From positions 4,774,001 through 4,838,000 of the forward strand of contig NC_089435.1 in assembly GCF_026210795.1 (NCBI RefSeq): a stretch of 64,000 nt of DNA. Reading direction: 5' to 3'. The stretch's first letter is position 1. Every line of letters starts with the position of its first letter. The notes under the pieces are model-generated. The model searched no databases. It was given only the letters and a program-made list of their open reading frames with translations, and had not been told where the DNA came from. Below are positions 24,251-52,244 of this stretch, piece after piece. A program made the translations under genes and the position numbers. This stretch comes from Rhizophagus irregularis (Eukaryota).

Positions 24251-24501
24251 CAGGTCGAAAAGTGAAAAATCAGGCATCAATCAGTTACCAATCGGTCACC
24301 AATCAGGTAGCTGATTGGTGACTGATTGGTGACTGATTGGCATTTTCGCCAAATACCATCATCAATCAGGCAGTTTGCTAACTTTTGATCCAGTGATCAG
24401 AAAAAAATGAAATATAGCTCATTGGAATCATCACCAATCAGCTACCTGATTGGTGACCGATTGGTGACTGATTGATGCCTGATTTTTCACTTTTCGACCT
24501 G
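24251..24501. mobile_element. MITE with ~70-bp TIRs and internal CCAATCAG/CTGATTGG repeats
   Basis: caggtcgaaaagtgaaaaatcaggcatcaatcag...ctgattggtga is mirrored almost exactly at 24432-24501 (...gatttttcacttttcgacctg). Confidence 0.88.
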
Positions 24502-25460: not shown

Positions 25461-27055
25461 CAGTCACCCCTCTCTACAGCGAACCTCGATATAGCGAATA
25501 ACATGATATAACGGATCATACAGTGTGGTACCGATTTTAAATATGAAAAAAACCTTGATATAACGAAGTTTACTATTTATTTACCATATAACGTAGTACG
25601 AAGTAAAGTGTGTGAATTTCTTATATAAAAATGCCTCTCGATATAACGGATTTTTTTTATAACGAATTTTTTTCAGTTATAACGAAGAATTTCTTTATAA
25701 TTAAATGTAATTATTAATAAATATTGATGCATTATGACATTAAATATCACCCCTGTGTTTTATATTTAAATTATGGATCAGGATTGTATCGGGATCGTAT
25801 CAGGATTAATAATTCTGGCTATTTTATTTAATATTTAGGCAGAATTACATTAATTTACATTAATTCGGTTGTATTAGGATTCGATGTGAATTGTTATTAA
25901 TTTATATTTATCAGAGGGGGTAAGGACACTCCTAGTTAAATTAATATATCATTAATAATTTATTTATTATATAGTCAGTTATTGTTAAACAGCATTCCTA
26001 CAAAAAAAAGGAATTATAATAAACATTTTTATATAGAACACTTCAGGAAGCATTCCCTATAATAAAAAAATAAAAAAGAACATTAGTAAATGTTCTTAAA
26101 CGAAATAAAAAAGAAAAAATTGAGTTGTCCCACTTACTTGCTTTGTTCTCGAGCGTTCATTTCGAAGTCCCCACAATAAAAAAAAATAAAAAAGAATATT
26201 AGTAAATGTTCTTAAACGAAATTAAAAGAAAAAATTGAGTTATTTTGCCATTCTTGTCTCGAGCGTCCATTTCGAAGTCCCCACAATAAAAAAATAAAAA
26301 AGAACATTAGTAAATGTTCTTAAACGAAATAAAAGAAAAAATTGAGTTGTCCCACTTACTTCTTGGTCCCAAGCGTCCATTTCGAAGTCTACAATAAAAA
26401 AAATAAAAGAAAAAAGCATTAGTAAATGTTCTTAAACGAAATTAATAAAAAAAATCGAGTTCCCCACTTACTTCTTGTTTCAAGCGTCATTTCGAAAGTC
26501 ACAATAAAAAAAAATAAAAAAGAACATTAGTAAATGTTCTTAAACGAAATTAATAAAAAAAATCGGGAGTTCCCCCACTTACTTCTTATGCTTAAGCGTC
26601 CATTTCGAAGTCCAGGAAGTTCCCTATAATAAAAAAATAAAAAAAGAACATTAGTAAATGTTCTTAAATAAAAAAAATTGAGTTCCCCACTTACTTCTCG
26701 TCTCAGGCATCCATTTCGAAGTCCAGGAAGTTTCCTACAATAAAAAAAATAAAAAAAGAACATTAGTAAATGTTTTTAAATGAAATTAATATAAAAAACC
26801 CCCCAGTTCCCACTTACTTCTCATTCTAGGCATCTATTTTGAAGTTTAGAAAGCACCCCTATAAAAAAAAGATTAAAAAAAATGTTAAATTATCGGTAAT
26901 CAGATCAACAAGTCACATGATCTGTATAACCGATATTCCTATACCGAAGAATTCATTATACAATACCGAATAATTCGTTATAGTGTTAACGAAGTTGCTT
27001 ATAACGAAGCCCTGATCAGCTGGAACCTAGGGTTCGTTATATCGAGAGGGGACTG
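25461..27055. mobile_element. Non-autonomous Tc1/mariner (pogo-like) element carrying a ~120-bp tandem array
   Basis: TA|cagtcacccctctc...gagaggggactg|TA ends; subterminal (g)atataacg(a/g)a repeats in both orientations. It interrupts an aaactaat-rich repeat that continues on both sides. Confidence 0.85.
26045..26862 (-). repeat. Array A: 7 x ~115-125-bp units with micro-exon/intron architecture
   Basis: Seven copies of the plus-strand palindrome aagaacattagtaaatgttctt. On the minus strand, six units have GTAAGT donors, there is a TACTAAT branch-like motif and T-tracts, and TAG acceptors are present in some units and mutated in others. Confidence 0.85.
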
Positions 27056-27752
27056 TATTATTAAACTAATTATTTTTATTTTAATCTTAAAATACTTTAA
27101 AACTAAATACTACTTTAAAGCTAATATTACTTTAAGTTAACATTAGTATTTTACTAGTATTATTTTATTTAATTATATATTTTGAGTAAATTCTAAAAAA
27201 TAGATATTTTTGATTTCTTTTTCAGTTTTTCTATAAGATAAATTTATACGAAAGAAAAAAATAAATAAAATTATTTATAGGGTTTTGTATTCAATATTAA
27301 AGAAAAAAAATAAAAAAATCTAAATAAAAAAAAGTAGGTAAATATGAAAAATACAAATTAATGATAATTAAAAAGTTTAAATTATACAACTATTATATTA
27401 AATTACATAATTTATATAATTTAAGATTACTTGCCAATTCTTTCCAAAATTTTATGTCCAAGATTTTACCATAGTTTTATTATAATTTTGCAAAATTTTA
27501 GCAGTTTCAGTATTTATAGTAAATTTCATTAGATTTTACTTTTTTTTAGAGTTTCGCCAACTTTTTAATATAGTTTCAGTAGGACTCCGCTTAAGATTGC
27601 AATTTTTTTTAATTTTAAGTACTATCTAATTTTAAATACCATTATAACTTTAGTAAAAAAATATATATAATGAAATTATAATAAAAATACTTTTAAATTT
27701 AAATATTAATTGATGTTTAAAATTAAAAGAATATAGTAATGAAAAAATGTAT

Positions 27753-28067
27753 TTGTAACAGCCTGTTACATATCTTATTTGTAACATCCTTTTTTTATTT
27801 TTTTTTAATAATAAATTTAATATATGTTTCACAAATAAAATTTTTATATGCAAAATTTAATTTGGAAAACTTTTACTTAATGTACTTAAAACAGTTTCAT
27901 AGACAAAATTTTAAGTTATAAGCAGTTTCTTGAAATTTTTTAAAAAATTCTTTTGTTTTAGTTACACAACTGATCTTTTGTTTTTGTTTACATTACGCCT
28001 GATCTTAAATTTTAATTGGATAAAATTGGGAGTTGTTACAAATAAGACGCGTAACAGGCTGTTACAA
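27753..28067. repeat. Inverted repeat pair, probable decayed MITE core
   Basis: ttgtaacagcctgttacatatcttatttgtaac (27753) is mirrored by gttacaaataagacgcgtaacaggctgttacaa (ending ~28067). Confidence 0.65.
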
Positions 28068-28299
28068 TTAGATTTATCCTATAGTAATAATAAAAGTAAA
28101 ATGATTTTTATTTCTAATAAATTTTATCTTTAATAAATATTAATACTTTATAATTTAATTTTTTATTTAGATTTGCAAAAAAAATTAAAATTAAAAGTTA
28201 AAATCAAAATATTTTAGTTTTAAAAGTCTAAATTAAAATTAAAATCAAAATTAGTTAAAATTATATAATATTATATAATTTAAATAATTATAAAATATT

Positions 28300-28600
28300 T
28301 TTTTAGAAGTATTTGTTAGTGAATTTTACAATATCATCTGGCAACCACATTGTAAGGCAGTAGCAGAATGGGAACATACTAAAGACATAAAAAAACAAGA
28401 TTTAAGGAAAAGGCCATTAGCATATCAACGCATTGCATACAAACGGATTCTAACTATACAAACAGAAGAGGGCACGTTTGACTTGGAAAAAAGGAAAATG
28501 TTGAAACATAATGAACAATGGTCAATAGCATTAGAAAAAACAAAACAATACATTAATCAATTTATTAGAGAAGGAAACAGGGTACTTTGGAAGGTATATA
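28300..28600 (+). pseudogene. Coding-like remnant, possibly the 3' end of a non-LTR retrotransposon ORF
   Basis: GC-richer island reading ...IIWQPHCKAVAEWEHTKDIKKQDLRKRP..., with no start and AT-rich flanks. The family assignment rests on recollected similarity only. Confidence 0.35.
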
Positions 28601-29625
28601 ATAATACAAAATATACAAATATAATATAACCTTTCTTTTTTTTTTTATCTAGAGGGTTTTACTTAAGTCTTATGAAATAGTGATCCTATATAATTTAATA
28701 GCTACTATTGAAGAATATAGGTGAATTTCATAAGGTAATGGTAAGGCACAAAAGCAATTTTTTGGATAGGGAACTGGTTTTGAATTTTAATAAATTAGTT
28801 ATATAACAGATGTTTTTTTATATTCTTACATATAATTAATAAACTTACAAATTGCACTACCTTGGCTAAAAAAAAAAAAAATAATTATAAAATAATAAAA
28901 TTTTAAATTACAATAATTTATCAATATTAAATTTATTTGAATTAATATTAAAACTATAAATATATTATTTAAAATTTTAAATTCTTTTAATAAATAAATT
29001 AAATGATATAAAAATTATTAAAATCTAATCACTAAATACTAAAATTATAAATAAAATGTCTAAATATTTTAGTAAAAATAAAATAATTAATATAAATACT
29101 ATTAGTATACTTTTATTCATTTTAATTAAAATTTTTAAATAAGTTATAAATTATTAAATTCTGATTATTAAATGTTAAAATATCCTTAAAATATCTTTAT
29201 TATTAAATTTTAACCATTTTGATTTTTGAAAAGTATTTTAATAAATTTAATAAATATAAAACAAATTTATATCTATTAATTCATTTATCAAAGAAATCCT
29301 GTACCTTTTGTTATTCAAATAAATTCCATATGTATTTTATTAATAAATCATTTATCTATTTATAGTAAGTATATAAAAAACTCTTAATCTATGACTTTAT
29401 AAGTAATTTAAACTATATTATTTTGTAAAAAAAAATAATTAGTATAATAATTATATTAAATTTAATATATAATGGAATATTATATAATTTTAAATTCAAT
29501 AATTTTATATATAAATTATTTTATTTTATAAAAAAAAATATAAGTATTTTTATATAACAATATATATATATATATTTAAAAAATATTATTTTATAATTAT
29601 AAAATATATTTTTATATAAAAAATA

Positions 29626-29909
29626 GGGATTAAAATTTGAACGCACCTGTGTTTTAAATGCATCCCTCTATTTTGGAAATTTTTATATAATAAAAATGCT
29701 GATCATTTTATCATGTGATACCGGCGAATTTCTGATTTTTTTGAATAAACACAATTTATACCTTATACACTTATAAATAAACTCATATTATATGTGTATT
29801 TTGCCTCCTCTACAACTTTACTTACTATGACAAAGGGGGTTTAAAACTTCATTTTTGACTTATACCATGGGAGTGCATTCAAATGCAGGTGCGTTTAAAT
29901 TTTAAACCC
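29626..29909. mobile_element. MITE with ~40-bp TIRs, TA-flanked
   Basis: ta|gggattaaaatttgaacgcacctg...caggtgcgtttaaattttaaaccc|ta. Confidence 0.8.
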
Positions 29910-30017
29910 TAAAAAATAAATAATATGAAATTTAATATTTTTTAAAAAAATAATTTTTTTTTAATTTAACAAAAAAGTTTTGATATTTATATAAATAATT
30001 AATAAAAAATAAAAGAA

Positions 30018-30278
30018 AATTTCTAAGTTTACACGGGATGTTTGTACACAGGTCATATAAATATAATTTTTAATAAACTAATTTTTTGTTTTTTAATTTG
30101 AAATTGAATGCTACCAACATTATACTCTTTTACTTTTTATTCTTATTATATTACAAATAAATATATATATTTTCACCTGCTCTGCAAGTTTACTTAAGAC
30201 ATTAAAGAAGGTTTTGAATGCCATTTTTAATCTACTAATATGACCTGTGTTTAAACACCCCGTGTATAAATAGAAATT
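30018..30278. mobile_element. MITE with ~40-bp imperfect TIRs
   Basis: aatttctaagtttacacgggatgtttgtacacaggtcatat...atatgacctgtgtttaaacaccccgtgtataaatagaaatt. A related solo end lies at ~22335-22377. Confidence 0.75.
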
Positions 30279-33002
30279 GCCAAAATAAAAATATATAATT
30301 TTAAAATAAGCAATTTTTTAAAAATTATATTAAGTATAATTTAGTATACTTATAACACTTATAAGGTATATTTGCTGTTTGGATAGAGTGCAAATTATTT
30401 ATTATAGGTTTGATTCTTATAATTTTTCCTTTAAATAAAAAGCATTGCTTTCTTTAAGTATAATAATAAAAATTCTAATATTTTTAAAAGAATTTTTCTA
30501 ACTATCACCGGGATGATGATCACTGATGACTGAAATTATGACGATCGACTAGCATTAAAAAAATAGAGTGCTGGTAAAATTTGATAATTCTTTTTTAAAT
30601 TTTATGTTATTTTTATATTTTCAATACTAAAATTTTTTTTTAATTTTCTTTAAATAAGCAAATATTTTTTGAATTTATTACAAATTTTTTTTATATAAAT
30701 TTGTATTAAAAAATTTCTAATATTAAAAATTCAATATTTAAATTTAAACTGGTATTATAAGTTAAATTATAATAATTAAAAACCAATAAGAGATTATTTT
30801 ATATATTTTAAATATATATGTTTTATTCTTAAAAAAATAATAAATACTGTAAATTATTAACAAATATTTGATTAGGGTAATATTTTTTTTTAAAAAAAAT
30901 AGGATAGGATTTCTAACTTTAAATTTAGTATTAATGATTTCCAGAATATTGCATAATTATTTTTATTCTATAAATAAATGCACACCATCTTCAGTTAATT
31001 TTAAGTAACTAAAAAGATGACCTTTCATTAAGAAAGTAATCTGGATAAATCATATAATTAGAATTAATTATTAGGCAAAATTATTTATTAAATGGGAACG
31101 ATAAGTATCAATGAGCTCATAATGATGAATTTCAAAATAACTAGGAAGTGGAGGATTTAATGTAACTATATCGGTTTAGACGCACCTATGAATTTTACAT
31201 CAATTTAATTAGTTAAAAATTAAAAAAAAAAAGTTACGTGCTGTTACGTAACAATACATACATTTAGTCATAAATTGAATTGTTTGCGTACTTTTATATC
31301 CGGAAATTTTAATGAATTCTTACAATTTTAACCCTCTTTGTAATTTATAACTTCGATGTGATGACTAAAAAATAATCCAAATCTGGTTATTAACTTTGGC
31401 TATCTTTAAAATAACTTGTTTGAGGCTTTTTATTTTCCCATTTGGTTATATATGACTACTTTTTTTCTTTACAAATAAAATTAGAAATTTAATGTATATC
31501 GGACTCGAAATGATCAATCGGAAAACAATATGAATTTTCCTAGGGAAAAAAAAAGAATTCTTTTTTTTTAACCAAAATTAGTGAGATCCCGGATTTCTCA
31601 CAAAGCCCCATTCTTATTATATAATAAAAGAAAAAAGTCACAAATACAATACCAAACTAAGCCAAACTAAGTCACATTTGTAAAATCATTTAATTCATAC
31701 TAAGCCGGATTTTCTCCCCATTTGTAATTTTAAAAAAATAATTAGTTTAGAATCTAAACTGAAAACATTTTGGGCTTTAAATTCGATGATTCATACAAAA
31801 GTATACAAATTATATCAATGATACCATAAAAAAAAAATATGTACATAATCTTTTAGATCATCATATTGATGAATGAATGGGATGATCAAGTCGAAAGATT
31901 TATGCAGAATTTGTAAGTGAACGAGCTACATAAAAAATTGTTCTGAATATTCAAAGAGAAAAAATCAAAAGTAAGCGTTAAAATCATAATAAATGTGATT
32001 AAAAAATTCTTAGAATTTAATAAAAAAAAAGTATTATTTATAAGAAAAAAAACCCCCCAATTCACCATTCGGTCACACAATTGAATCACATGATTTTAGA
32101 CGGTTTGATTGTCGATCGCAACCCTAATTACGAATTATCCATGTTCAATTATGGTCCCAGTCCACAATCAATCTAAAAATGAGAAGGGAACTTAAATATA
32201 AATATTTTTTAAAAAAATTGCATTCTCCAAAATGAAAATTCCATTTGGAAAATGGCCCACTAACTAAAATCGAATGATCATTTATGTCATTATTGTTCTA
32301 AAAAAAGGTTCAATTAAAGTTCAGAAATTTTTTCTCATTGTGTTTACAAATAAATACAAAAAGTCATGCGAACAAGATTATTTATGTGACACAACTCTTT
32401 TGGCACATTTTTGTAAATTTGTGCAATATTTACATATAACACTACATATTTTACCATTTAATGATTATATTATTTATCGTCATAAAAACATGAGATTGAT
32501 AGAAAAAAAAAGGCAGTGGAGGCTTAGTATGATATATAAGGTGGCTTTGTTCCCGATATATTAAGCCATTTATGTTGTTAAATAATCGATTCATTAAATA
32601 TATACTGATAAATCCATAAAGGGAAAAGATCAATCAAGATCAATCAAAGATCAATTAACAGTAAATTTAAAAAAATATACACTTATTCTAAAATTTCCTT
32701 TCATGTAGGCAAAAAGTAATAATAAATTTTATTTATTTATTTTTTTTTTTTTTACGTATCAATTTCATTTTAAAAATAAACTTAATCGAAAAAATCTTTC
32801 GCGTCTCTTCTACTAAATTCTCATAAAACGCGTAAAAAGTACAGGTAATATAGTTACATTTATAATAAGCTCCCGACTTTTATTTCAATTAGAACTTCCC
32901 AACCTTAATTTTTATAACATCGAATATAATAATAATAATAATATATATATTTTTTTTGTATATAAGCAAGTAGTGGGAAAATTATTAAAGGGTTATATTA
33001 AT

Positions 33003-33630
33003 TTAAGCAAATATAGCACCAAGAATTACAGCTGCGAATGAAACTCCGACTTCGGCTTTAAGACTGTTTCCGGCTCCTGTTGCTGATTTGGCAGGTGTGC
33101 TTCCTGATGCTCCTGCTGGAGCAACTGATGTACCTGTTCCTCCACCTGGAGTAGGTGCGGCTGTTTTCGCTGGTGATGGTGCTGCTCCTTCTGGTGGTGG
33201 TCCTGCTGGTGCTCCTCCTGCTGGTGGTGCTCCTCCTGCTGGCGGAGCTACTTTACCCTTAGCATCACCTCCTGCATCTTTGGGTGCATCTTTGGGTGCA
33301 TCTTTGGGTGCTCCTTTGGCTCCATCTTTAGGTGCTCCATCTTTGGGTGCTCCATCTTTGGGTGCTCCATCTTTGGGTGCTCCATCTTTAGGTGCTCCAT
33401 CTTTGGGTGCTCCATCTTTAGGTGCTCCATCTGGTGGTGGTGCTCCTGGTGCTGGTGCTGGTGCTCCTGGTGCTCCTCCTGGTCCCCTATTATCACAATA
33501 CAAGAAGTTTATTTTATCTATTCAGTCATTAAAATTTTTTTCTTTAGGAAAAAACTTACTGTGCAGCAACGCAGGCAATCAATACGGTGAGAACAATAAG
33601 AAGAAAGAAGATACGATTATTAAATTTCAT
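33003..33630 (-). CDS. AGL: GPI-anchored arabinogalactan-protein-like (AGL) protein with APKDG repeats; 2 exons
   Basis: Exon 1 (33630-33560) is the signal peptide MKFNNRIFFLLIVLTVLIACVAAQ. After a GTAAGT..TAG intron, exon 2 encodes GPGGAP...(APKDG)x7...SATGAGNSLKAEVGVSFAAVILGAIFA* (GPI-type C-terminus). Confidence 0.92.
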
Positions 33631-34776
33631 TTTATAATTTGATGAAGGTTATCAGAAAAGAGATAATTGGAAAGAAAAGGAAAAAGGGCTCATATTTATT
33701 AGTTTTTTTTTTCGAATATTTGTTTATATCCATATTTCCTTTTTACGGAAACATCTCCGGGATACATTTTTGAAACGTTACACTTCATTTACTTGTTGGC
33801 GTTAAAATAACGCTTTTTGGCAAAAACTGGTGGCTATACTTGTGCGTTTTAAATTCATTTATTATACAATGGTATCATTACACAAAAAAATCGGGTCCAA
33901 CAAAAAATATTCATATTTTATTTTTAGATTTTATTTAAATTTTTGTAGATCATTTTTAAGTTATTAATTAGTTTATATATATATATATTTGTTATAAATA
34001 AAAGGTTATCAAAATTAACGCCACTGAAATAATAAATTGTATTCTATATTTTTATGAAATGATTTTTTTATAATTTACCGTATATAACTTTAAAGACAAA
34101 AAGTGTACATGAATGCAACCGCATGGAGACATTCCCTCATCACTATGAGAGGTACTCACTAGGCAGTGTAGCAAAAATTATGATTGGAGTTGCGAATTGT
34201 GTCATGTGTATTTTAATAAACTAATAGGAAGCCGGTGTGTAATTTTCAAAAATAAATAGGAGAGAATTTGTGTTTCCGTGCAATTAGATTGTTTGACATT
34301 TTAGTATATACTGTTATATTGTGGGATTGTGGGATGACTATAGTTAATAATTCAATTCAGATATTCACAAATGAATATCAGACGATCAGAATCGGTTTAA
34401 CACATAACTGGCCAACTTCAGATTTTATTATGTACTCCATAATTCAACATTGCATGTTTTGTCACCGTTAACAACTGAGAATATTAATTTGATGGTTATG
34501 CTAACGAATAAATGCTAGATTATGTTCGTAAAGATGTGATCAAATAGTCATCTATTTACCATTCGGAATTTCGGATAAAAAAAAAATTGACCCAAAACAT
34601 TTGTGGAATTTATATTAAGAGAAAAAAATCTCTCGTTTTTTTTTTGATTTTTTCGTAAAACGCGGTATTAAAGAATTATCATATATCGATTTTTCAATTA
34701 ATTAAATCACGATTTTACTTTGGCAATTAACCTTGCTTTGGAACTAAATGACCCAATAAAAAATCATAGAAATTGA

Positions 34777-35133
34777 TCACACGTCATCGTTCGCTGTTTG
34801 TGGTATGATTGATGATGTTTCTGCTGGTGGTGGTGGTGCTGGATCTGGTGGTGGAGCGCCTTCTGCTGGTGGGCCAACTGCCTTGCCTTTAGCTTTAGGT
34901 TCCTCTCCTTTAGGTGCTTCTTTACCTTTAGGTGCTTTACCTTTGGGTGCTCTGGGTGCTTTCCCATCACCTCCCGGCTCCCGGTGGTGGTGCTCCTCCT
35001 GCTGGTGGTACTGGGTTCTCCTGGTCCCCTATTAGAGACGTATACTGTATTTATTTATTTATTTATTTATTTATCCATCAATCAACACAATGAGAACAAT
35101 AAGAATAAAGATTATAATTTTATTGAATTTCAT
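34777..35133 (-). pseudogene. AGL pseudogene
   Basis: Starts MKFNKIIIFILIVLIVLIDG*. The end of exon 1 and the splice donor are missing, the acceptor aatag|gggacc is retained, there are two frameshifts early in exon 2, it has APKGK-type repeats and it lacks the GPI signal. Confidence 0.8.
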
Positions 35134-36807
35134 TTCTTATAATTTATGTCGGTTATAAAATGAAAAAAAGATCTCGTATTTATTAAAATTTTTTTATGTT
35201 TCTTTTTTTTTACGGAAACATCACTGGGACACATTTCGAAATAAAATAAACGGCTTGCAATGATATCGTTACATAAAAAATCAGGAAGGGGCTTGTTTTT
35301 TTATTTAATTTATTAGATATTTTTAGTCATAACAGATATTCATCCAAATAAAAATTTAAATTTAATTATATTTTGTTATAAATAATATGTTTGAAACGCC
35401 CACTTGAAATTTTGTAAATAACAAATTGCATATTAAGAGACTTAAATATTCAAATCATAATTTTATTTATTATTAAAAAAAGGGGGGTTTTGAAATAAAA
35501 GTAATCTCTAACCATAAAACAGCCAACCAGTTTTCTAATTCCAGAAAATGCTCAAATATTTATCTTAAAGATAATATCTAAAAATAAAACAAAAACAAAA
35601 CAAGGTAAAAATAAACGCGACGACATTGGAAATTATTTTGAAGTCAGATAGCCAATATGTTAAAAAAAATGACCGCTTAGAATCGATATTCGTTAAATCG
35701 ATTCCAGATAAAAAAACATACAAATGATCTTGTTAAAAAAAATTGTGAAAAATATGAAAAATAAAATTATGAAAATATCTGTTTCCAGTTAATCTAACTC
35801 CGCCGGTGGCCGATTGTCATTACTCTGGCCTGGTGGGACATCAAAGAAGAAAAAATAAAAAAAAACAAAGTAAATTTAGTCGCTTGGAGGAGACAATTCT
35901 TTACTAAGCAATGTAGCAGAAAATAGAATTTATAATAATACGCGGGAATCATACGTATTTTAGTAAACAAAAAATAAAGAGATTGACATTTTAATTATAT
36001 GAGATACATATAAAGTGCATCACAAATAGGGATGTAAAATTTACCGTAATTTATAAATTTTATTGTTACGTTACGGTAATTTTCTATGTTACGTTACATT
36101 ATGTTATTGTAACATAAAATTTTTTTTTAATCAAAATCTGAAGAAACAATAAATTCCAATAAAAAAATGATATAAATATAAATACTGTAATTCTAAATGA
36201 ACAAAAATGCGACAAGATTGCAGGAATATGTTAAAACTTGTATGATAAGATCATAAAAAAAGTTGAATCCGAAACTGTAAAACATGATAATGAGCCACTT
36301 TTTATTTGTTAATGTTTGTTATAAATTATAAACTTGGCCAAGATTAAGGTAATACTGGCTGAATTATCTTAATTCTGGTAAACATATCAATACATATCAA
36401 TGTAATGGTGTTACATAGATTTCAGGCCGAAATTGATTTTATTATATGAATTAATTTTATCGTAATACGATTGATAAACTAAAGCGCGGGTATTAGGGAA
36501 TTATTATATAAGAAAACAAGAGAAAATGAAAATACGAAAAAAAAAATCCTTTTATTATTATTATTATTCACGCGATAAAGTTGAATTAAAATTAACAAAT
36601 TATTATACTATTTTCCAACCCATAATTATTAACCAAAAAAAAAGATCTATTGTTTGGTAACTAAGTAAAATCTAATGTTCGAAATTTTTTTATTTCGATC
36701 ACGACGCTATTATTATCTATTTTTAAACACAGTACAGATCATAGTATTTATAATGTCTATAATTACTACAAAGAAAAATATTATAGATGATAGAATTATT
36801 AATTAGT

Positions 36808-37344
36808 TTAAGCGAGGATAGCACCAAGAACGGCAATAGCAACGAATGAAACTCCAATTTCAGATTTAAGAGAATTTCCGGATCCTGTTGCTGTTGTTCC
36901 TGGTGATGATTTTGGTGCGGCAGCAGTCCCGCTTGATGTTGATGGTGTTGCTGCCGGTGGTGATGCCGAACCTGATGGTGTTACTCCTGGTGGACCTCCT
37001 GCTGGTGGAGTGCCTGGGGCAGCTTTTCCTGCATCGCCTGCTGGAGCTTTACCGCCAGCTGGAGCGCCTCCTGGTGCTGGAGCTGGAGCTTTTCCGCCTG
37101 GTGCTGGTGCTGGTGCTTTTCCCGCGTCACCTCCTGGTGCTGCTGGAGCTTTTCCGTCGCCTCCTGGTGCTGGTGCCCCTGGTACCCTATTATCACAAAT
37201 ATGAGGATTTATTTATTCAATCATTATTAATTTTTTTATTTATTATTTTTTTTTTCATGGGAAAAAAACTTACTGTGCAGCAACGCAGGCAATCAATACA
37301 ATGAGAACAGCAAGAAGAAAGAGGATGCGTTTATTGAATTTCAT
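36808..37344 (-). CDS. AGL: GPI-anchored AGL protein (GGDGKAPA/APAPGG repeats); 2 exons
   Basis: MKFNKRILFLLAVLIVLIACVAAQ|VPGAPAPGGDGKAPAAPGGDAGK...ATGSGNSLKSEIGVSFVAIAVLGAILA*; same intron position as its paralogs. Confidence 0.9.
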
Positions 37345-39161
37345 TTTTTATAATTTTAAGTGGGTTAATGAACAGAGATGGTTGAAAAAAAGAAGAAAAA
37401 GGTCTCGTATTTATTAGATTTTTAACGGAAACTTCTCCGGGACACATTTGCCGGTTGGCGGTAAAAAAAGTAACGCTTTTTAGTAAAAACTGTATTAATC
37501 ATTACACAAAAAAAATTAAGGGATATTTATTTTTAGATGTTTATTATTCTGAAATGAATTTTTTAAGCTAGATCATAAATAAAAATTTACCCGACGAAAA
37601 TATTTGATATAAATAAAAGACCATAAAAAAAAGAAACTTTATTATAAACGAACGCCTATTGTTAAGGTTCGTAAATAATAATAAATTGCATATTATTAGA
37701 TATTATTAGAAACCCAAGGATCAATATTAGAAATCTTGTAAATTTTAATTTAATTTATTTTTGACTTTTTTTTTCAGATTAATAAGATTAATTATATATA
37801 GCAAATTTTAAGTTGTTCAAAAAAAAATGATTGAAAAAATAAAAACTGTGAAAATGTCCTTTTCTAGCTAGTTTAATTCTGTTATTGGATTATGATTCAT
37901 CCGGTTATCCATCCGGTTAATTTTTTGAATGAATATTACAAATAGATAAATCTTAAGAATTATTCGCCGCAGATGATTTTTATGATGCCATAATTGCATT
38001 TAACTATTACATTATTATGTTAAAGTTTCGGAAATTTATGATTATTCGGATCCTCAAAATTTCCAACGAGTTATTCTCTATTGTCCATAGAGTGCACAAA
38101 ATTAAGTTTGAATATTCATTCGGATTAATATTATCCGTTTTTTTACCTTCTATTTGGGAAATAAAATACTTTTTTTTTCTTTACAGTTATATACAGTGTT
38201 TATATCCGAGTTTGTCCTATCCTGTTATATTGGCAGATATCCAGTATTAATAAGATATCGCATATAGATTATATGACCTAAAGGATATCCAGATATTATT
38301 GTATCTAATCAAACGGATGTTCTATTAGGCCTTCATAAATTCCTAATGCCGAACATACCTGCCAAAATTAACCGTAATTCCGGCAGAAATGGTATAATGC
38401 TAATATTCATACCAGAAAATCATTGAAATTAGAATTTACTTTTTATTAGTAATTTTATTATTGTGAGGAGCAAGTGACCGTTAAACATCCGCCAAAATGA
38501 CGGATTTAACCAAAAAAATTTTTGGTGGTTATCCGGATATAAAAATTCTTAGCAGTAAACTTAACCGGATACAATCAAAATAATTATTACTAAAAAAACA
38601 ATTGATCCAAGTGGTGGCGCGAACAAATTTTGGTGTGATCAAAATAATTATAAAACAATTGATCCAAGAGGTGACGCGAACAAATTTTGGAATTTACAGT
38701 AGATTAAGCGAAAAATTTTCGCGGTTTATCTTTATCTGTGTTAATGGTAAATTTTGTTGAATATTTTTGTTCAAAAGCTTAGGGCTTGGTTAAAAGGATT
38801 TCGATCAAAACACAGTTTAAGTCATTATGTTAATTTTATCACGTAATACGTTTTTAAACTTTAAAAAAAATTAAATCTTAACTTTCATAAGACGCAGTAT
38901 TAGAGAATTATTCAAAAAAAAAATTTTCGTTGCAAATTATTATTATTATTCAAGCAAAAAAGGTTTAATTTTTTTATTTAATTTGACATTAACGCACGCT
39001 TCAACCCACCAAAAAAAACCTTATATATATTAATCTATTTTTTATTTTCCGTCACAGCAATATTATTAATTATTATTAAATATAAATATTATTTATAATT
39101 TCTATATAATTTTATAATAAAAATGTTCTTTTTGATGTTTTGATGATAAATTATTAATTAA

Positions 39162-39915
39162 TTAAGCGAAGATAGCACCAAGAACGGCAATGGCAGCGAA
39201 TGAAACTCCAGATGATTTAAGAGTATTTCCGGATGATGCTGCTGCTGCTCCTCCTGTTGATGATGTTTTTGGTGCGGAAGCAGCACTGTTTGGTGGTGGT
39301 GGTGGTGGTGTTGCTGTGCCTGCTGGTGTTACTCCTTTTGGACCTCCTGCTGGTGGAGCTCCTGCTGGAGCAGCACCTGGAGCAGCACCTGGAGCAGCAC
39401 CTGGAGCTGGAGCACCACCTGGAGCAGCACCTGGAGCTTTTCCGTCAGCTGGAGCTTTTCCATCAGCTGGAGCTTTTCCATCAGCTGGGGCTTTTCCGTC
39501 GGCTGGGGCTTTTCCGTCAGCTGGAGCTTTTCCGTCAGCTGGAGCTTTTCCATCAGCTGGAGCTTTTCCATCAGCTGGAGCTTTTCCGTCAGCTGGAGCT
39601 TTTCCGTCAGCTGGGGCTTTTCCGTCGGCTGGGGCTTTTCCGTCAGCAGCACCGTCAGCTGGGGCTTTTCCGTCGGCTGGAGCTTTTCCATCAGCTGGAG
39701 CTTTTCCGTCAGCTGGAGCTTTTCCGTCAGCTGGAGCTTTTCCGTCAGCTGGTCCTCTATTATCATAAACAAGAAATATTTTTTATTTATTAAACTATTA
39801 AAAAATTTATTATTATTTTTTTTTTCAGGGAAAAAAAAACTTACTGTGCAGCAACACAGGCAATCAACAAAGTGAGAACAGCAAGAAGAAAGAAGGTACG
39901 TTTAGTGAATTTCAT
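39162..39915 (-). CDS. AGL: GPI-anchored AGL protein with ~17 APADGK repeats; 2 exons
   Basis: MKFTKRTFFLLAVLTLLIACVAAQ|GPADGKAPADGK...AAASSGNTLKSSGVSFAAIAVLGAIFA*; 18-nt repeat at 39435-39750. Confidence 0.92.
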
Positions 39916-41491
39916 TTTTATTATTATAATATTATGTGGGTTTGTGAGTTAATGAATATGAATGATTGAAAAGAAGTGGAATGATTGAAAAAGAGAGGAA
40001 AAAAGGCTCGTATTTATTAGATTTTTTCTCTCAACCTATATTTCCTTTCTTGGAAGTGTTCCCGGGATACATTTTGAAACGTTACACTTCATTTAATGCT
40101 TGGCGTTTAAGGAACAAACGCTTTTAGCAAAAACTGGTTGGTATCATTACACGAATAAAATTAGGTTTATTTTTAGATATTTTATTATGAAATATGAATT
40201 TTACTCGACGCAAGTTTAATTAGTTAATATTTAATTTGTTAAGAATATAAGGCTATCAAAAAGCAACTTTACCATATATGAACTCCACTGAAATTAAATT
40301 GCATATTTATCGGCAATTGAGTTAGTAAAAAAATGGGTTTGTTGAAAAAATTTTTTAGATTTATAAATTTTTGATTATAGAAAATTTTTTTATCGCATGT
40401 AAAGGATAAAAAAGGATAAAAAGATAAAAATATAATCATGTTACTATATTGAAAAAATAAAATATCCATTTCTAGTTAGTAGTTACTCTGCTAATGGGCG
40501 ATGCTAAATTTAAATGCCCCGTCACCCGAATACTTATTTTTTTGAGATACCCGAAGACTACATCTCAATGTAAAATCAAAATCTTTGTTCAAGTAGAGGG
40601 AAATTATAAACGGATTGAATTTGTCATCTATCTGAATTAATTTTAATCAATTTTAATTCCTCTTTATTATTATGTTAGGACAGGTCATAATTCTCGCAGT
40701 CGCTCCTATATGTAACATATAATCAAAAGGTGCCTAGTCATTCGAGCCGTCTAATTCGTCTAATTAGAATTACAAAGAAGAAAAATAAAAAAAAACAATC
40801 GTTCCAACACATATGCAAGATAAATATAACTGCATACCGTGACAATTCTTTCCTCCAAAGAGAGCACTAGGCAGTATAATACGTAATACACGAATGTACC
40901 ATACTATATAAACTTATTGCCGTTTCGGTCATTCGATCATTTGACACAAATTTCCAAGCCACGCCGCCGATCACATACGAAACTTTTTTTTTTCTAATAA
41001 AGTATTTTTTAATCTTTTTTTTATGTTCCGATAAATAGACTCTATACACACTATATACTCCGAACTCGAAGTCTTTTTACTAGAAACAACTCAGTATATT
41101 TACTGCTTAACTTTGAGATCACACTTTAGATCACACTTTAGATCTTCGATCACACTTTCTTTGGGTTATTGAATAACGCCAAAATGGCACCGTAAGTAGT
41201 AATAAGAAATGCTTTTTGTCGTATTTAAAGACGATAATTGATATTTTCAAAGTTGTGTATCATATATTTATTTGTAAAAAATTGTTTTTAGGCGCTTAAT
41301 ACACTAATTATCATATTTTAATACATTTTAAAACTATAGACGGTAAAAACAAGTCAAGAAAGTAGTATTATTAGTTGTTTTATAGGTTTTGTATATGAAT
41401 TATTTACTTGCTAATATTTTGTTAGCATGTAGTAATATTTATGTAATTTTGTATAGAAACTTTTTAATTAATCTATACAATTTATTAAATA

Positions 41492-41679
41492 CAGCCAGAC
41501 CTCCATAATTGCACACCCCTTGGGACCATATGCATAATTTTCAAAATAGTGCATTTAAAGAGGGTGTGCATTTATAGAGGTAAAATAATTAGAGATCATA
41601 TAAGAACCAGAGGGTGCATTTAGAGAGGGTATACATAGTGGGTGCAATTATGGAGAGTGCAATTATAGAGGTCTGACTG
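41492..41679. mobile_element. pogo/Tc1-like MITE, TA-flanked
   Basis: ta|cagccagacctccataattgcac...gtgcaattatagaggtctgactg|ta; internal gagggtgcattta repeats. Confidence 0.85.
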
Positions 41680-42969
41680 TATTGTGTAGAATTATTATTA
41701 TTTTAGCACTATTGAATAAAAATTATAAGAGAATCTAATATATTAGATATAAGGTAATAGATGATTTTATACTTAAAAATACTTGGATTTTAAATAGATC
41801 AAATAGATCATATTTTTAATTTTTTCGTTTATAATCTATTTTTCAGTTCTTACATTTGAATAAATTTATACAAATAATTAATTATTAATATTTCAATTAA
41901 ATATAATAGTTTCCAACCTTTATTTGCTTTGGTTATTATGTCTGTACTGAAAATTTTAAAGCAGTATAAGAGCGCAGAGCGCGGCACGTTTAAGTTTATA
42001 TACATACATCTGATTCTGAGATATATAATAAAGTAAACGCATATTGTTATCATGTGACTGGTTGTGTTTTTTTTGTGCTGCAATGATCGGTTAGGAGTAA
42101 TAAAGATGACAATGGCCTAGTTAAAAAATAAACAAATAAATAAAAAGATAGTTTGTGTTTCTTTGCAATTAGAATGTTTGACTTTAGATATTCAATTTTT
42201 AAACAATGGTGCTTAACACCTTAGTATGTGTTTTCGCAAAAACTATGGCCTAAATTAAAGAAATTGTAACTTTTTTATACTGCAAATGTTAGCAAAAAAT
42301 TTAATACATACATAATATGAATTTTAATTATTATATTATTAACTACTACTAATATTGTAGAATAAAACACCCACTGGTATGATTGGTATGATTTATAAAT
42401 AATTTTTTATTTTATATTTGCATTAATGAGATAATATCGGAAAGGAAATCGACCACTTAGATTGGGACGAACAAATTTTGGGAATTTAGAGATCAAGCGT
42501 TTTCGCGTTGTTTTTTATTTTACTAATATTATTATTATTATTATTATTTATTTATCGTGCGGAATGTGGGTTATTAGAGGATTATAATATTAAGAAAAAT
42601 AAAAAATGAAAAACCAAAAAAAAAACGATTACAAATATCTATTACGCGAAGTAAGTTGGGATTTTTATTAGAAATTAACGCGTTTACTTTGGAAACTAAT
42701 TATTATACTATTTTCCAACCCATAATTATTAATCAAAAAAGACCTTATTGTTTAAAAAGAGGAACTAAATCTAATAAAAATATAATATGAAATAATAAAA
42801 AACTATTTAAATTAATGTTCGGAATTTTGTTTTTGGTCGTATCACTATTATTATTTATTATTAAGCACGGTAAATATAATATAATAACTTTATAAAGTGT
42901 ATATAATTATTACAAAAAAAAAAAATCTTTTTTTTTATGATGGTAAATTATTAAATCTAATTAATTAAT

Positions 42970-43742
42970 TTAAGCGAAGATAGCTCCAAGAACGGCAATG
43001 GCAGCGAATGAATATCCAGATGATTTAAGAGAATTTCCGGATGATGCTGCTGCTTTGGCTGATGCTGATGGGGCTGCTCCTCCTGCTGGTGATGCTGCTG
43101 GTGTTTTTCCGTCAGCTGGGGCTGGTGCTTTTCCGTCTTTTGGAGCAGCACCTGGAGCTGGAGCAGCACCTCCTGGAGCAGCACCTGCTGGAGCTTTTCC
43201 GTCAGCTGGAGCTTTTCCGTCAGCTGGTGCTTTTCCGTCAGCTGGTGCTTTTCCGTCAGCTGGAGCTTTTCCGTCAGCTGGAGCTTTTCCGTCAGCTGGT
43301 GCTTTTCCGTCGGCTGGTGCTTTTCCGTCAGCTGGTGCTTTTCCGTCGGCTGGTGCTTTTCCGTCAGCTGGTGCTTTTCCGTCAGCTGGTGCTTTTCCGT
43401 CGGCTGCGTCTGGTGCTTTTCCGTCAGCTGGTGCTTTTCCGTCGGCTGGTGCTTTTCCGTCGGCTGGTGCTCCGTCAGCTGGTGCTTTTCCGTCGGCTGG
43501 TGCTCCGTCAGCTGGTGCTTTTCCGTCAGCTGGTGCTCCGTCAGCTGGTGCTTTTCCGTCAGCTGGTGCTCCGTCAGCTGGTCCTCTGTTATCATAAAAA
43601 AGAGTGATTTGATTAACAACTTCACCATATTATATTAATTATTCTTTTCTTGAATAATAATTGTGAAGGAAACTTACTGTGCAGCAACGTAGGTAACTAA
43701 AGCGAAGAAAATGGCGAGAATAATGAAGATGCGTTTATTCAT
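42970..43742 (-). CDS. AGL: GPI-anchored AGL protein with APADGK and APADG repeats; 2 exons
   Basis: MNKRIFIILAIFFALVTYVAAQ|GPADGAPADGKAPADG...AKAAASSGNSLKSSGYSFAAIAVLGAIFA*. Confidence 0.92.
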
Positions 43743-46700: not shown

Positions 46701-48477
46701 TTTTGTCCTGATTTGTAGATTACCAATATATATGCGTCTTTGATTACAAATAGAAGGCGGAAAGTTCTTCGTATGTTTAAATTTATACCAAATAAAGAAA
46801 CGTAATTTTTAATGCCCATGTATAGAATTTATAATTAATAACAAAATAAAAAAGAAAAATGATTTCTCTTATAGAATTCGATACTTTGGCAAGTTTAACT
46901 GGTCAATTATTATAATTTATAATTTACAGATTTTTTCGAAAAAAAAAAAAAGTTCTGTTTTTTTCGCAAACTTTTCCAAAATTTTTCTTTCTTACATGTA
47001 ATAATAAATAATTCATTTGAGAGAATTTTTTTTTTTAGCACGTTGAAACTTAAAAGAATCTTATTATTAAAAAAAAATTTTATTACAAAAAAAAATAATT
47101 GTATGCAAAAAAAAGCAAACTTATGCAAGTCAAAAAATAAAAAGTTAACCCGCTCTTTTTAAAAAATTTTCGTAAAAAATGCTGTAAATTGTTTTTTTTT
47201 TTTGAATCAATACAATTCTTGCTTAAATTAATTCATTGTTTTTTCTTCTTAATATTACAAAATCAAATTTCCCTATATGGGATTTCGATCACCCAACTGT
47301 TGAAAATTTTTCTTAAAAATCATGCAAAGTCATGTATATTAAATTAAATGTTTTGAATCTTTTTTTTTTCTATTTGGAAATCTTTTTTTTTTTTGGGTCT
47401 TCCAATAAAATATTTCCCTGGTCTTTTTGAAAATAATGAAATAAATCGGTAAATTAATAATTCCTGGTAAATCGGCTCATTTCTTTGTATCTTCTCTCAT
47501 CGGAACACGTGATATTTTGTTCTCTTTGTAAATTATCACGTGAATGTGAATAGCGAAATTTAAAATATAGTGATATTTGGTTTTATAATAATAATCGAGT
47601 GTCATCGATCGAAGAGATATTACCGCAAGCAAGTAGCGACATGACCATCTCAAAAGTCTCACAAACTAAGTTGCTATTAATTATATACCCAACTCAACTT
47701 TTCATCATATATCAAGAAATAAACATTTTTTTTTTTAAAAAAAAATTCTTTGCTATATTATATCAGAAACACGCTTAAAAACAATTAGCATTTACAGATG
47801 TTATTGTGATGTTAATTCTCGTCATCATTATTTACCAGAATCGTAGAAATTTTACCAAAATTTATGACAATGCTGAAATTGGGCAAATAATAATTATTTT
47901 TCTCGTTTTTATCTTACATTTCATCTTTCTGAGTTATATTCTCAAAATCTCAATATTAAGCCCGAATTATTTTGATTCTTGTGATGCGAAATAAACGAAT
48001 GATTTATTCTTGTCACACATAGATCGATTTGGTTAATATGAAATATATACAAAACTAACTAACCTGAATTGAACAGGACTACATAAATAATGGTAGGGGG
48101 CGAAGCAGTTCGGATGATATTTTAACCACCATACCTAATAACTGTGTTATTATGCAGGCGTCCAAGATCATGTTCCATATGAAAAGCACAGTAAATATGT
48201 GATAATTAATCTATATGACGTAATGCGTCAAAATATCAAAGATATTTAATTTAAAAACAACATGATCCTATTTGGCTGCATAATAACATAATATACAGTA
48301 TAAAGTATAATAATAATTTAAAAATAATCATTCGCTAATTTTAGAAGAAATTAAGCATCTTAATAAACGCGTAAAATTAATATAAAAAATATGGTAAATA
48401 AAAATCGTGCAATGTTTGTTATACTTAAATCTATCAAACCATTAGGAAAGATAAAGTATACCTGGTCCCGTCTAATA

Positions 48478-48714
48478 CAGTCCCTCGATATACGGATATT
48501 CGATATATTAAAAACTTGATATACCAGTAAATTTTTACTCTCCCACTATGTGAGAGAATATATAAATATCGGTATAATTTTGATATAACAATATTTTTCA
48601 AAGGTTTTCGTATGAATCCTAACATATCGCAGTTTGCAGTTTGACGGTATATGTACCGTATATTTGCGGGCCATAGTACCCCGGGTATGTTACAAATTTC
48701 GAGGGTTGACCTTG
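48478..48714. mobile_element. Degenerate pogo-like MITE related to the ends of the 25461-27055 element
   Basis: ta|cagtccctcgatatacggatattcgatata...ttcgagggttgaccttg|ta; gatataac repeats. Confidence 0.6.
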
Positions 48715-48965
48715 TACTACCATGTCTATAACACAAAATTTTAATCTGTTATAATAACATATATTTCAAAAGCTTGTATAATAATCATATAATTCCTGGG
48801 CAAAATCTGATTCTCTAAATAATAAAATCAATAGAAAAAGTAACTTTTTTCATGTAAAAAAAGGGGAATACTATACATAGGGCCCACAATATATGGTATT
48901 ATAGTATGTATTATACATAATATAAAAGTATGGTTATAAAAGATTTTTATTTGTTAAAAAGTATA

Positions 48966-49162
48966 CAGTCAACCCTCTCTAAGTGCATTCTTTCTAAATG
49001 TATACATTATATATTTTTCTTTAATGCATCCTCTTATTCAGTTTCAAGTATATAAGATCATATAAAATATCTCTTTAAATACATATCTTTTTAAATACAC
49101 ATTTTTTCGAATTTTCATTATAGTTCTATTGTTCTAAAGGGATGCATTTAAAGAGTTGACTG
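48966..49162. mobile_element. pogo/Tc1-like MITE, TA-flanked, related to 41492-41679
   Basis: ta|cagtcaaccctctctaagtgcat...atgcatttaaagagttgactg|ta. Confidence 0.8.
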
Positions 49163-50161
49163 TATAAACTTAAAAGTGAAACTGACTTTTTTTTCTTTAT
49201 GTTTTATAATGTTATTTAGAATGCTTTATTGAAATTATATAAATAAAAGTTACTACAGCAATTTAAAAATACACAAATAGAAAAACCATTTATCATAAAA
49301 GACTATTGATTAAGGATAGATTAACAGTTAATAAACAAAAAAGTAAAACTGAATTTCTTTTATATTTTATATATTAGTATAGTATAATAATAAAAAAAGT
49401 TTTATAAGCCTAATAAAAATAAATTAAATATCAAATGTGATAAATTGAATTTCTTTAGTTAATAGACTTTTATTAATAATAAAATCAGCTTTTTCAAAAT
49501 GGAATTTATATTTGAATTTTTATATATGGATTGATATAATGTAAAAGATTATTATTTAATTTATACTAGTATTATATACTAAAATTATTTAAAATTTTTG
49601 ATTCAATTATTATAATAGTTAAAAAACTCTTAATATTATACTATATATTTATATATTAGTAAATAATAAATAATGAATTTATACTGAATTTATGGATTTT
49701 ACTAATCAAATTACTAGTAACTAATAATATAAATCTATTTAAATTTAATGGTTTATTTAATTTAATGTATTATTTATGTTTTATACTATTACATATTTTA
49801 TATATTTATAAAGTTTTACATAACAGAAATAAAGTTAATTACTTGTTTATTTAATTAGACTTTTTTTTTAAATAATATATTTTTAATAACAGGCATTTAT
49901 AATTTTCTCAATTATTAAGTAAAATTTATTACAAAATCTAAATAAAAATTTTTTGCTTCTATAATAATTTATTATTATATAAACAATTATTAAAATTTTT
50001 GTAAGTTGACATTTATTAATAATTCACTTTACTTTTTTTCTTTGGTAATATTAGTTTACTTTATTACTCTACTAGTAATATACTTTTACTTTATTTTACT
50101 TGCAATTTTTACATTACTATATCATCAGAATTAAATAAATAAAATACTAGTATAAAATAAG

Positions 50162-52195
50162 TAAGGATGGGCCCGCAAATAATTTCCAAAATCCGCAATA
50201 TTGCGGATTTTGGAGCTGAATTGCGGTTAGTAACCCGCAATTCCGCAATTCTGATTGGCTGATAATTAAATTTTTTTCTAATGATAATTTAATAAAAAAC
50301 ACACCGGTTTTATAAATATAAATTTAATCAAAAAAAATTTTTTAATAAATTTATTTATTTATTATTTATTAGAAACAATAAACCATAATTTCTGAAATGG
50401 CGCAACTGCACCAAAAACTAAATCAAACACAGACAACAATGGCGAACTTAATAATACTAATCAAAGTTCTGGGCTGGAATCTACAAAAAAAAGTGAAAGA
50501 ACGTTAATAAACGTTCTTACATAAAAAAAACATAAAAAACCTTGCTTCCCCCTCTAAAAACACCTACCGGTCTTTATTTCCAAGTTCCAGGCCGGAATCT
50601 ACAAAAAAAAGAAGTAAAGAACGTTAATAAACGTTCTTACATAAAAAAATAAAAAAACCCCGCTCCCCCCTTTAAAATACTCACCGGTCTCCATTTCCAA
50701 GTTCCAGGCCGAATCTACAAAAAAAAGAAGTAAAAGAACGTTAATAAACGTTCTTACATAAAAAAACCAAAAAAAAACCACTCCCCCTTTTAAAATACTC
50801 ACCGGTCTCAAGTTCCAAGTTCCAGGCCGGAATCTACAAAAAAAAGAAGTAAAAGAACGTTAATAAACGTTCTTACATAAAAAAACAAAAAAACGGCTTC
50901 CCCTCCCTTTAAAATACTCACCGGTCTTCATTTCCAAGTTCCAGGCCGGAATCTACAAAAAAAAAAGAAGTAAAAGAACGTTAATAAACGTTCTTACATA
51001 AAAAAACAAAAAAAACTGCTTCCCCTCCCTTTAAAATACTCACCGGTCTTCATTTCCAAGTTCCAGGCCGGAATCTACAAAAAAAAGAAGTAAAAGAACG
51101 TTAATAAACGTTCTTACATAAAAAAAAATAAAAAAACCCCTGCTCCCCCCCTTTAAAATACTCACCGGTCTCCATTTTCAAGTTCCAGGCCGGAATCTAC
51201 AAAAAAAAAAGAAGTAAAAGAACGTTAATAAACGTTCTTACATAAATAAAACATAAAAAAACCCCGCTTCCCTCTTTAGAAACACCTACCGGTCTTTATT
51301 TCCAAGTTCCAGGCCGGAATCTATAAAAAAAAAAGAAGTAAAAGAACGTTAATAAACGTTCTTACATAAAAAAATAAAAAAACCCACTCCCCCTTTAAAA
51401 TACTCACCGGTCTCAAGTTCCAAGTTCCAGGCCGGAATCTACAAAAAAAAAAGTAAAAGAACGTTAATAAACGTTCTTACATAAAAAAACAAAAAAAATT
51501 GCTTCCCCTCCCTTTAAAATACTCACCGGTCTCCATTTCCAAGTTCCAGGCCGGAATCTACAAAAAAAAGAAGTAAAAGAACGTTAATAAACGTTCTTAC
51601 ATAAAAAAAACAAAAAAAAAACCCCCTTCCGCTTCCCCCCTTAAAATACTCACTGGTCTCCATTTCCAAGTTCCAGGCCGGAATTTACAAAAAAAGAACG
51701 GTGTTGTTTTTTTTAAAATGAAAAAAAAATTTAAAATTGCGTAATGCAATTCTTATTTGATTTGTACTATGCTATCCGATAATCTAATCCAGATCATTAA
51801 CTATTAATATCAATAACCGTCGAATTAACTGGCCGGTATATTTTTTCTAAAAAATAAATGACTTTTTTTAAAAAATTTTATTAATGAAAAACCGAATTTT
51901 TTTTACTTTTAGTAATAAGAAGAAATCGGTTTCTTTATTAGTTAATTAAAAAAATTACATTTATTAAAAAAAATTGTTCTTTTTTTTGCGGGCAATCCGC
52001 AATTCCGCAAATAATCCGCAATTCCGCAATTAATTACGAAATTGCGGATCATTTGCGGAATTGCGGAAAAATTGCGGAATTGCGTCTAATTACGGATTGC
52101 GGAATTGCGGATATATAGACTTCAAAATCCGCAATATTCCGCAATACCGCATATCGCAAATATTCCGCAATTACTTATTTGCGGCACCATCTTTA
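50162..52195. mobile_element. Non-autonomous hAT-like element carrying a 10-unit tandem array
   Basis: TIRs taaggatgggcccgcaaataa / ttatttgcggcaccatcttta; 8-bp TSD aaaataag at 50154-50161 and 52196-52203; dense subterminal ccgcaat/attgcgg repeats at both ends. Confidence 0.92.
50481..51684 (-). repeat. Array B: 10 x ~120-bp units, each a 31-nt micro-exon plus a ~85-96-nt GT-AG intron-like segment
   Basis: Minus-strand unit: tag|attccggcctggaacttggaaatggagaccg|gtgagt...G-run...aagaacgtttattaacgttctt...T-tract...tag. Example: exon 51527-51557, intron 51439-51526. Confidence 0.9.
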
Positions 52196-52244
52196 AAAAT
52201 AAGTAAATAAAATAAATTTAACAAATTAAGTAAATCAATAAATA

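Follow-up and report, generated by a model that had tools for sequence, protein, structure and literature searches.

An exon-intron array common to DNA transposons of different superfamilies in Rhizophagus irregularis

In the arbuscular mycorrhizal (AM) fungus Rhizophagus irregularis, two DNA transposons with unrelated ends carry homologous minus-strand arrays of tandem exon-plus-intron units. Both elements, here called A and B, lie in the 64,000-nucleotide stretch that we analysed (the window; contig NC_089435.1 of assembly GCF_026210795.1, positions 4,774,001 to 4,838,000). Relatives of the arrays occur in metagenome contigs as a native arm module of autonomous elements, and not solely as cargo of non-autonomous ones. 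The anatomy of the array is solid and unusual. At somewhat under even odds (roughly 0.45), we read the arrays as a shared non-coding spliced leader that would give transposon RNA the look of a host message rich in introns and whose hairpins would throttle splicing; its spread would be due to capture, or to recombination among nested elements. The evidence from beyond the window comes from one scan of metagenome contigs with the hairpin pattern and one mapping of sequencing runs onto B.

Element A ends in imperfect ~25-bp CAGTC..GACTG inverted repeats with TA on each side. Tc1/mariner-pogo elements are recognised by a TA target duplication together with short terminal inverted repeats (TIRs) beginning CAGT, and A shows both, TA alone being a weak sign in DNA of 80% A+T. 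The left 232 bp of A are 78% identical to a metagenome locus, L014, which has the same TA/CAGTC end in a different flank. Element B has the 8-bp target-site duplication (TSD) of hAT elements, AAAATAAG standing on both sides, and its 21-bp TIRs TAAGGATG and TAAAGATG pair at 18 of 21 positions ('TAGGGATG-like'), resembling the TAGAGATG/TAGAGGTG ends of metagenome clusters with PF05699 or clearly homologous open reading frames (ORFs). The sequence-only reading had placed the two arrays in a TA-flanked, CAGT-ended element and in an 8-bp-TSD element with unrelated TIRs, and the ends and duplications as located here (Table 1) agree with this. No transposase was found in A, which lacks any ORF of at least 100 aa, nor did the ORF listing contain one belonging to B. 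The metagenome loci contained neither an autonomous partner with the ends of A nor an autonomous copy with CCGCAA repeats.

Table 1. Elements A and B and their parts, in window positions
Feature	Position	Strand	Description
Element A	25461..27055		non-autonomous DNA transposon, pogo/Tc1-mariner-like ends; TA at 25459-60 and 27056-57
Left TIR of A (imperfect)	25461..25485	+	followed by TATAACGAA-type subterminal repeats
Array A	26045..26862	-	~112-bp units: 29-41-nt exon and GTAAGT intron, AAGAACATT-TACT-AATGTTCTT hairpin, T tract, YAG; partly decayed
Hairpins of array A	26076, 26192, 26300, 26412, 26520, 26644, 26756		
Right TIR of A	27031..27055	-	array A faces inward from the right end
Element B	50162..52195		non-autonomous, hAT-like; 8-bp TSD AAAATAAG at 50154-50161 and 52196-52203
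Left TIR of B (21 bp) and CCGCAA/TTGCGG subterminal repeats	50162..50250	+	
Array B	50464..51695	-	~119-bp units: 30-31-nt exon and GTGAGT/GTAGGT intron, AAGAACGTT-TATT-AACGTTCTT hairpin, T tract, TAG
Exon of B, 31 nt	50922..50952	-	donor boundary 50922/50921 is the joining point to a homologous exon start in a contig of run X18
Right subterminal repeats and TIR of B	51992..52195	-	array B faces inward from the right end

Each element has a single array, read inward from its right end. Tandem Repeats Finder gave a period of 112 with 6.6 copies for array A and of 119 with 10.2 copies for array B; A is thus nearer 112 than the ~120 bp proposed earlier for both. The hairpin AAGAACRTT-N4-AAYGTTCTT was matched 17 times in the window at up to two mismatches (0.01 expected), seven times in A and ten times in B, with no match elsewhere in the window, and the branch-site consensus (TACTAAY/TATTAAC) spans its loop and 3' arm. 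The exon cores of the two arrays agree at 17 of 19 positions, with a score of 26 against 12.8±2.6 in one set of shuffles (0 of 2000 reach it) and 12.4±2.7 in another (5 of 2000). Aligned as whole units, A and B score 58, the shuffle maximum being 42. Since whole-unit identity (65-70%) is barely above its null (57%, maximum 66%), the homology proposed from the letters, which we uphold, is carried by three features: the hairpin, the exon core and the order in which the parts follow one another. Outside the arrays, three of eight comparisons between A and B slightly exceeded the shuffle maximum, mostly through A/T matches and without involving the TIRs. Array A shows decay, a following YAG being scored for only four of its seven hairpins and three lacking the AG.

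The hairpin scan returned 85 stretches in metagenome contigs, which reduced to 82 loci in 44 clusters, and 38 of the 44 contain an exact hairpin with a pyrimidine tract and YAG behind it. Seventeen clusters could be assigned to an element: 13 have hAT or hAT-type ends, two are Mutator-like elements (MULEs), one is the pogo-like L014 and one belongs to an unclassified multicopy Glomeromycotina gene. Seven of the 13 hAT or hAT-type clusters contain transposase ORFs, five of these confirmed by Pfam; in L068, TIRs are present and the 8-bp duplication was not found. Thus the earlier suggestion that the array moves between, or is captured by, non-autonomous elements stands in so far as one family spans hAT, MULE, pogo-like and unclassified contexts, but its restriction to non-autonomous elements falls, because the array sits in the arms of transposase-encoding ones. 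Two clusters (L005 and L020/35/81) were dropped as chance hits, and L006 and L066 were treated as probable chimeras. At L006 1-100, a host aminotransferase intron passes into poly-T and then an array-type acceptor at the contig end, which could be an assembly chimera or a real exon-trap event. Rfam 15 gave no match at gathering score in the window and four sub-threshold matches in five metagenome loci, a scan of viral contigs gave no hit, and a protein search with the unspliced array frame gave one unnamed hit, for which there was no taxonomic range.

Among loci with a transposase-like or TET/JBP-like ORF, the array is aimed toward the gene in 24 of 25 (11 of 12 clusters); arrays on the 5' side are sense to the gene and those on the 3' side antisense, inward 3'-end arrays occurring in seven of the 11 inward clusters. 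Four contigs cover such a gene together with its flanking arrays, and in four of four both ends are on the one contig with inward arrays; the arms are 77-94% alike (94% over 802 nt in L057+58, 90% over 650 nt in L072+73). The order in L057 runs from TIR through subterminal repeats and array to the transposase start. The outer arm of L071 runs into the left flank of L057 with distinct inner junctions, and outer arms may therefore be collapsed by assembly. Long inverted arms with internal tandem repeats, as in foldback elements, are thus found in the autonomous hAT and MULE relatives and not in A or B, which have one array each.

Exchange between superfamilies is suggested by the units themselves. 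L014, with A-type pogo-like ends, holds exon types otherwise found in hAT-type shells and shares 79% unit identity with L068. In a tree of 61 of 136 units (at most three per assigned locus and one per unassigned locus; 125 columns, bootstrap unsettled), two L014 units cluster with those of hAT-type shells (96/92) and stand apart from A. Monophyly of the hAT-borne units was rejected in the approximately unbiased (AU) test (p-AU 0.018) and that of the pogo-borne units was not (p 0.06 and 0.31), so that recent exchange is suggested and not proven. The comparison of unit tree with element family, proposed as a check by the sequence-only reading, hence came out discordant with the element ends. Capture or recombination between nested elements would be the simplest route across superfamilies, and nesting is seen where a hAT lies inside a MULE in L070 and where a miniature inverted-repeat transposable element (MITE) lies inside the L014 array.

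Evidence for splicing comes both from the signals and from exon junctions. Array units show the U2-type succession of GT donor, YTRAY branch, pyrimidine tract and YAG at fixed spacing, with a branch-to-AG distance of 24-29 nt in 271 of 321 units and exons ending in G in 238 of 268, and these signals are nearer consensus than those of predicted host introns. Four probable RNA runs were mapped to B; they are RNA by guess, their contigs come without strand or start, and array A was outside the mapping. Coverage reached a depth of ~1900 over the array in X18 and ~2700 in X19, with zero over 49900-50415 and 49986-50329, respectively, most of the left flank and left TIR being uncovered in both; absence of coverage was given no weight. 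Among 24 loose ends listed (there are 102 more), at least three are exact exon-exon joins at predicted donors and acceptors, X18 at 50922 and 50713 and X19 at 51190, all reading GAGACCG or GGGACCG joined to ATTT; a fourth, at 50681, is probable only. The two runs belong to two studies. In one X18 record, that at 50922 with a depth of 460, a spliced junction and a retained intron occur side by side. No intron-sized skip appeared in the joints table, and five junction motifs tested had no match in the DNA loci or the window. Because the partner exons differ from those of B, the junction records come from homologous copies, and precise intron removal is accordingly seen for these B-type copies.

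The hairpins set array introns apart, stems of at least eight pairs near the acceptor occurring in 80 of 136 array units versus one of 23 predicted host introns. At 28 variant sites, all picked by their 3' side alone, compensation was seen for 25 of the 51 stem positions that had changed (permutation mean 7.3, maximum 19); loops measure from 3 to 6 nt or more, and pairing is kept where the letters of the stem differ. We infer throttling only tentatively, because in yeast stems near splice sites were uncorrelated with the spliced fraction in the part of that study available to us (PMC12350175). In L001, 11 donors are also enclosed in 7-14-bp stems; this locus (440-2882) has at least 20 diverged units, with donor and branch site both in hairpins. 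A reading of the palindrome as a heat-shock element, built of nGAAn units, was set aside given degenerate inner units and varying loop length, and a poly(A) signal that can be read on the other strand of the loop (AATAAA/AGTAAA) is not kept in variant loops.

The lengths of 198 distinct exons are spread 65/59/74 over the three frames, so they do not form one coding frame, and this possibility was rejected. The exons share the words CTTGGA, CCTGGA and TTTCGG (also TTCGG), and contain 256 stop codons, fewer than the 320±10 of shuffles. ATG is scarce in exons beside transposase-like genes (14 of 73; shuffles 36.8±3.7), as expected for the leader of a translated mRNA, and common in exons of gene-less shells, A and B among them (16 of 24; shuffles 10.5±1.9).

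One may speculate how such a leader would work. Transcription would enter each arm, started by a subterminal promoter or coming in from the flank. Splicing, repeated along the array, would license the 5' RNA for export and translation and would alter what becomes of RNA that enters at the 3' end, and the hairpins would likely slow it. Units would multiply as their T tracts undergo slippage or unequal exchange, A and B would be deletion derivatives or chimeric shells, and the module would cross superfamilies through other, nested elements and not by its own movement. A benefit of the array to the element, raised in the sequence-only reading, we likewise infer. It is possible, if doubtful, that the array is a portable, superfamily-independent RNA-processing module whose inward, structure-throttled introns at both ends license transposase RNA as host-like, defuse read-through RNA and counter splicing-linked genome defence. 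Work available to us in part is in line with such a role, introns being required for expression in Cryptococcus (PMC5851062) and protecting from HUSH silencing (PMC8770142).

Several observations weigh against the leader reading. Twenty-five of the 44 clusters are tied to no element (short contigs, unclassified repeats, array fragments and L044), so that the possibility considered at the outset, that arrays lie mostly outside TIR elements, is neither borne out nor fully excluded by the 17 assigned; some arrays are fragments in DNA without an assigned element (the L013 cluster, L064, L054), and the window contains several inverted-repeat elements free of arrays. The array of L043 faces outward, and the 3' arrays, antisense to the transposase, are not explained by a simple leader and could make double-stranded RNA. 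The junction records represent diverged homologous copies and not demonstrably B itself, unspliced introns are deeply covered too, and the runs are 'RNA?' guesses represented by contigs only. Compensated variants come mostly from L001 and L044, and single changes that make G-U pairs (21) are not above those that make A-C (30), hence the strand bias expected of an RNA hairpin is not seen; palindrome-restoring double changes are in excess (31 vs 5), and DNA-level palindrome repair could produce the covariation. Exon and unit counts, moreover, are not independent. Finally, intronless copies of Glomhopper in Gigaspora are expressed more than intron-bearing ones, according to the portion of that paper available (PMC13465315).

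Much of the same evidence bears on other explanations. Foremost among them, though unlikely, is self-restraint or a read-through trap, in which hairpin-hidden splice sites stall spliceosomes or catch host read-through from either side, yielding less transposase or feeding small interfering RNA. The inward 3'-end arrays, the hairpins over the branch A (and in L001 over the donor) and the retained introns beside spliced ones in the X18 record would suit a trap, as would the finding, in the part of the paper available, that poorly spliced transposon RNA triggers RNA interference in Cryptococcus (PMC5851062). A trap sits poorly with splice signals nearer consensus than those of host introns and with the paucity of exon stops. 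Several arrays do open with an acceptor that has no canonical donor before it (A, L057, L016, L068, L022), but others start with a donor or plausible donors (L034, L031, L072, L062), and an orphan acceptor is equally expected from T-tract slippage. Next comes a neutral satellite, also improbable to us. Here slippage would have multiplied one ancestral exon-intron unit of a 5' untranslated region, foldback or gene conversion would have placed copies in both arms, and nested elements would have handed the array on to one another with no gain from it; the palindromes would stay perfect through template switching. Strand-switch repair predicts the excess of palindrome-restoring changes, decay is seen in A and in MULE copies, and tandem repeats in long TIRs are known from Tetris (PMC4079207, available in part). 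Yet in at least four element types the splice signals and their spacing are retained alongside exons that have become unrecognisably different, the inward orientation is nearly constant (11 of 12 clusters), and ATG is depleted only beside transposase-like genes.

We consider it quite improbable that the array is a DNA-level target at which CpG palindromes and exon words (CTTGGA, CCTGGA, TTCGG) dock a host or element anti-silencing factor, as VANC does on VANDAL elements, with splicing incidental. The shared exon vocabulary, the missing G-U bias, the 91% identity of B-type units to an array upstream of a TET/JBP-like gene and the tandem repeats formed by VANC targets (PMC5735166, in its available part) are what such a target would lead one to expect; against a fixed protein site stand the varying loop length, stem letters that change with pairing kept, the fixed order, spacing and inward orientation of donor, branch, tract and AG, and the exact exon junctions. 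Far less credible still is the remaining option of the sequence-only reading, an array that is itself mobile, here taken as Introner- or Helitron-like and as targeting transposon arms. The unit tree discordant with element ends would agree with it, and a hairpin followed by TAG is loosely like a Helitron end. Helitrons have conserved 5' TC and 3' hairpin-CTRR ends and insert between A and T, but the units here end in YAG followed by exon, and the 26 array starts viewed vary and show no conserved terminus or target duplication, which speaks against mobility of its own. Exon and intron are duplicated together, and no copy occurs in 23 predicted host introns or elsewhere in the window. Dispersed near-identical single introns of the Introner kind were likewise absent from host genes of the window, the sole candidate, L006, looking like a poly-T chimera.

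Compared with known systems, the array differs from foldback and VANC arrays in being spliced, structure-conserved and common to several superfamilies. Introners too are families of similar introns tied to mobile DNA, but they put single introns in host genes, whereas the arrays amplify exon and intron within transposon arms. Foldback-type Tetris/TIR-220 (PMC4079207) has tandem units inside long inverted arms, as here in L057+58 and L072+73; the unit here, however, is an exon with a spliceosomal intron, with spliced forms seen and homologous units in several superfamilies. The arrays targeted by VANC in Arabidopsis VANDAL MULEs (PMC5735166) similarly consist of tandem repeats that evolve fast, lie in non-coding stretches of DNA transposons and may counter silencing, but they are family-specific DNA sites, whereas the present arrays cross superfamilies and are defined by splice signals and hairpins. 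In Cryptococcus (SCANR; PMC5851062) and in HUSH silencing (PMC8770142), introns and splicing decide between self and silenced RNA; these are host systems, and a transposon-borne portable intron array is not described in the available parts. Nor is the array described in the parts available of papers on AM-fungal transposons (PMC11075540, PMC8647823, PMC11952901), on Glomhopper (PMC13465315) or on TET/JBP transposons (PMC12730594, there without mention of Glomeromycota). Four hairpin strings gave no literature hits, and the module was not described in the literature searched; subscription papers, Repbase and supplements, which lay outside the search, may describe it.

About two-thirds of AM-fungal repeats are unclassified (PMC11075540, available in part), and the 22-bp hairpin signature finds and links many of them. 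The array may also mislead gene prediction through multi-exon pseudo-genes. If functional, it would mean that transposons of different superfamilies share a cis module acting through splicing. A fungus would then allow a direct test of the idea that introns serve as a mark of self towards genome defence, and a lineage in which engineering is difficult could gain a strong leader for expression.

Some members of the family have features of their own. In L044 (411-6386), B-like units (91% identity to B) lie upstream of the TET/JBP-like gene (Pfam E 4.4e-07, under the curated cut-off); behind that gene there is a divergent array of ~2.7 kb with many acceptor and micro-exon units and GAAACGTT-type hairpins, the element ends lying out of view. 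The unclassified multicopy Glomeromycotina gene (L031 ~630-5132, and L053) has an inward 3' array and a possible TTAA/GGGAC end, from which we would guess a Kolobok/Sola-like element; the L053 protein had no Pfam match and fell only in unnamed Atlas clusters, with DUF7869 in 38% of one cluster. An unclassified repeat family (L007, L008, L022, L028, L048, L062, L080) has ATCATCGTTCC-type tandem repeats on one side of its array and TTGGCTGAATTT-type repeats on the other, with no termini in view.

The window (~27% G+C) also contains TOR, a Gly/Ala/Pro-rich gene cluster and several small inverted-repeat elements. Array-free MITEs at 23325-23553 and 53228-53658 have AGGACC..GGTCCT ends and 8-bp duplications (TTCACAAC; GTTCACTC), and it is a relative of these that is inserted in the L014 array (L014 874-1156). 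Further small array-free inverted-repeat elements lie at 24250-24502, with CTGATTGG repeats and 72-nt arms that are 99% complementary, and at 27734-28086, 30018-30278 and 48145-48288. Between A and B, a minus-strand tandem cluster (33003-43634) comprises five Gly/Ala/Pro-rich genes with APKDG/APADGK repeats and hydrophobic C-termini, which we take to encode AM-fungal arabinogalactan-like (AGL-like) proteins. A minus-strand gene adjoining TOR and a uricase-like gene (14947-15864 and 12557-13940), presumably Cactin-like, carries a 36-bp coding tandem repeat (RYSDEEDRRHRD).

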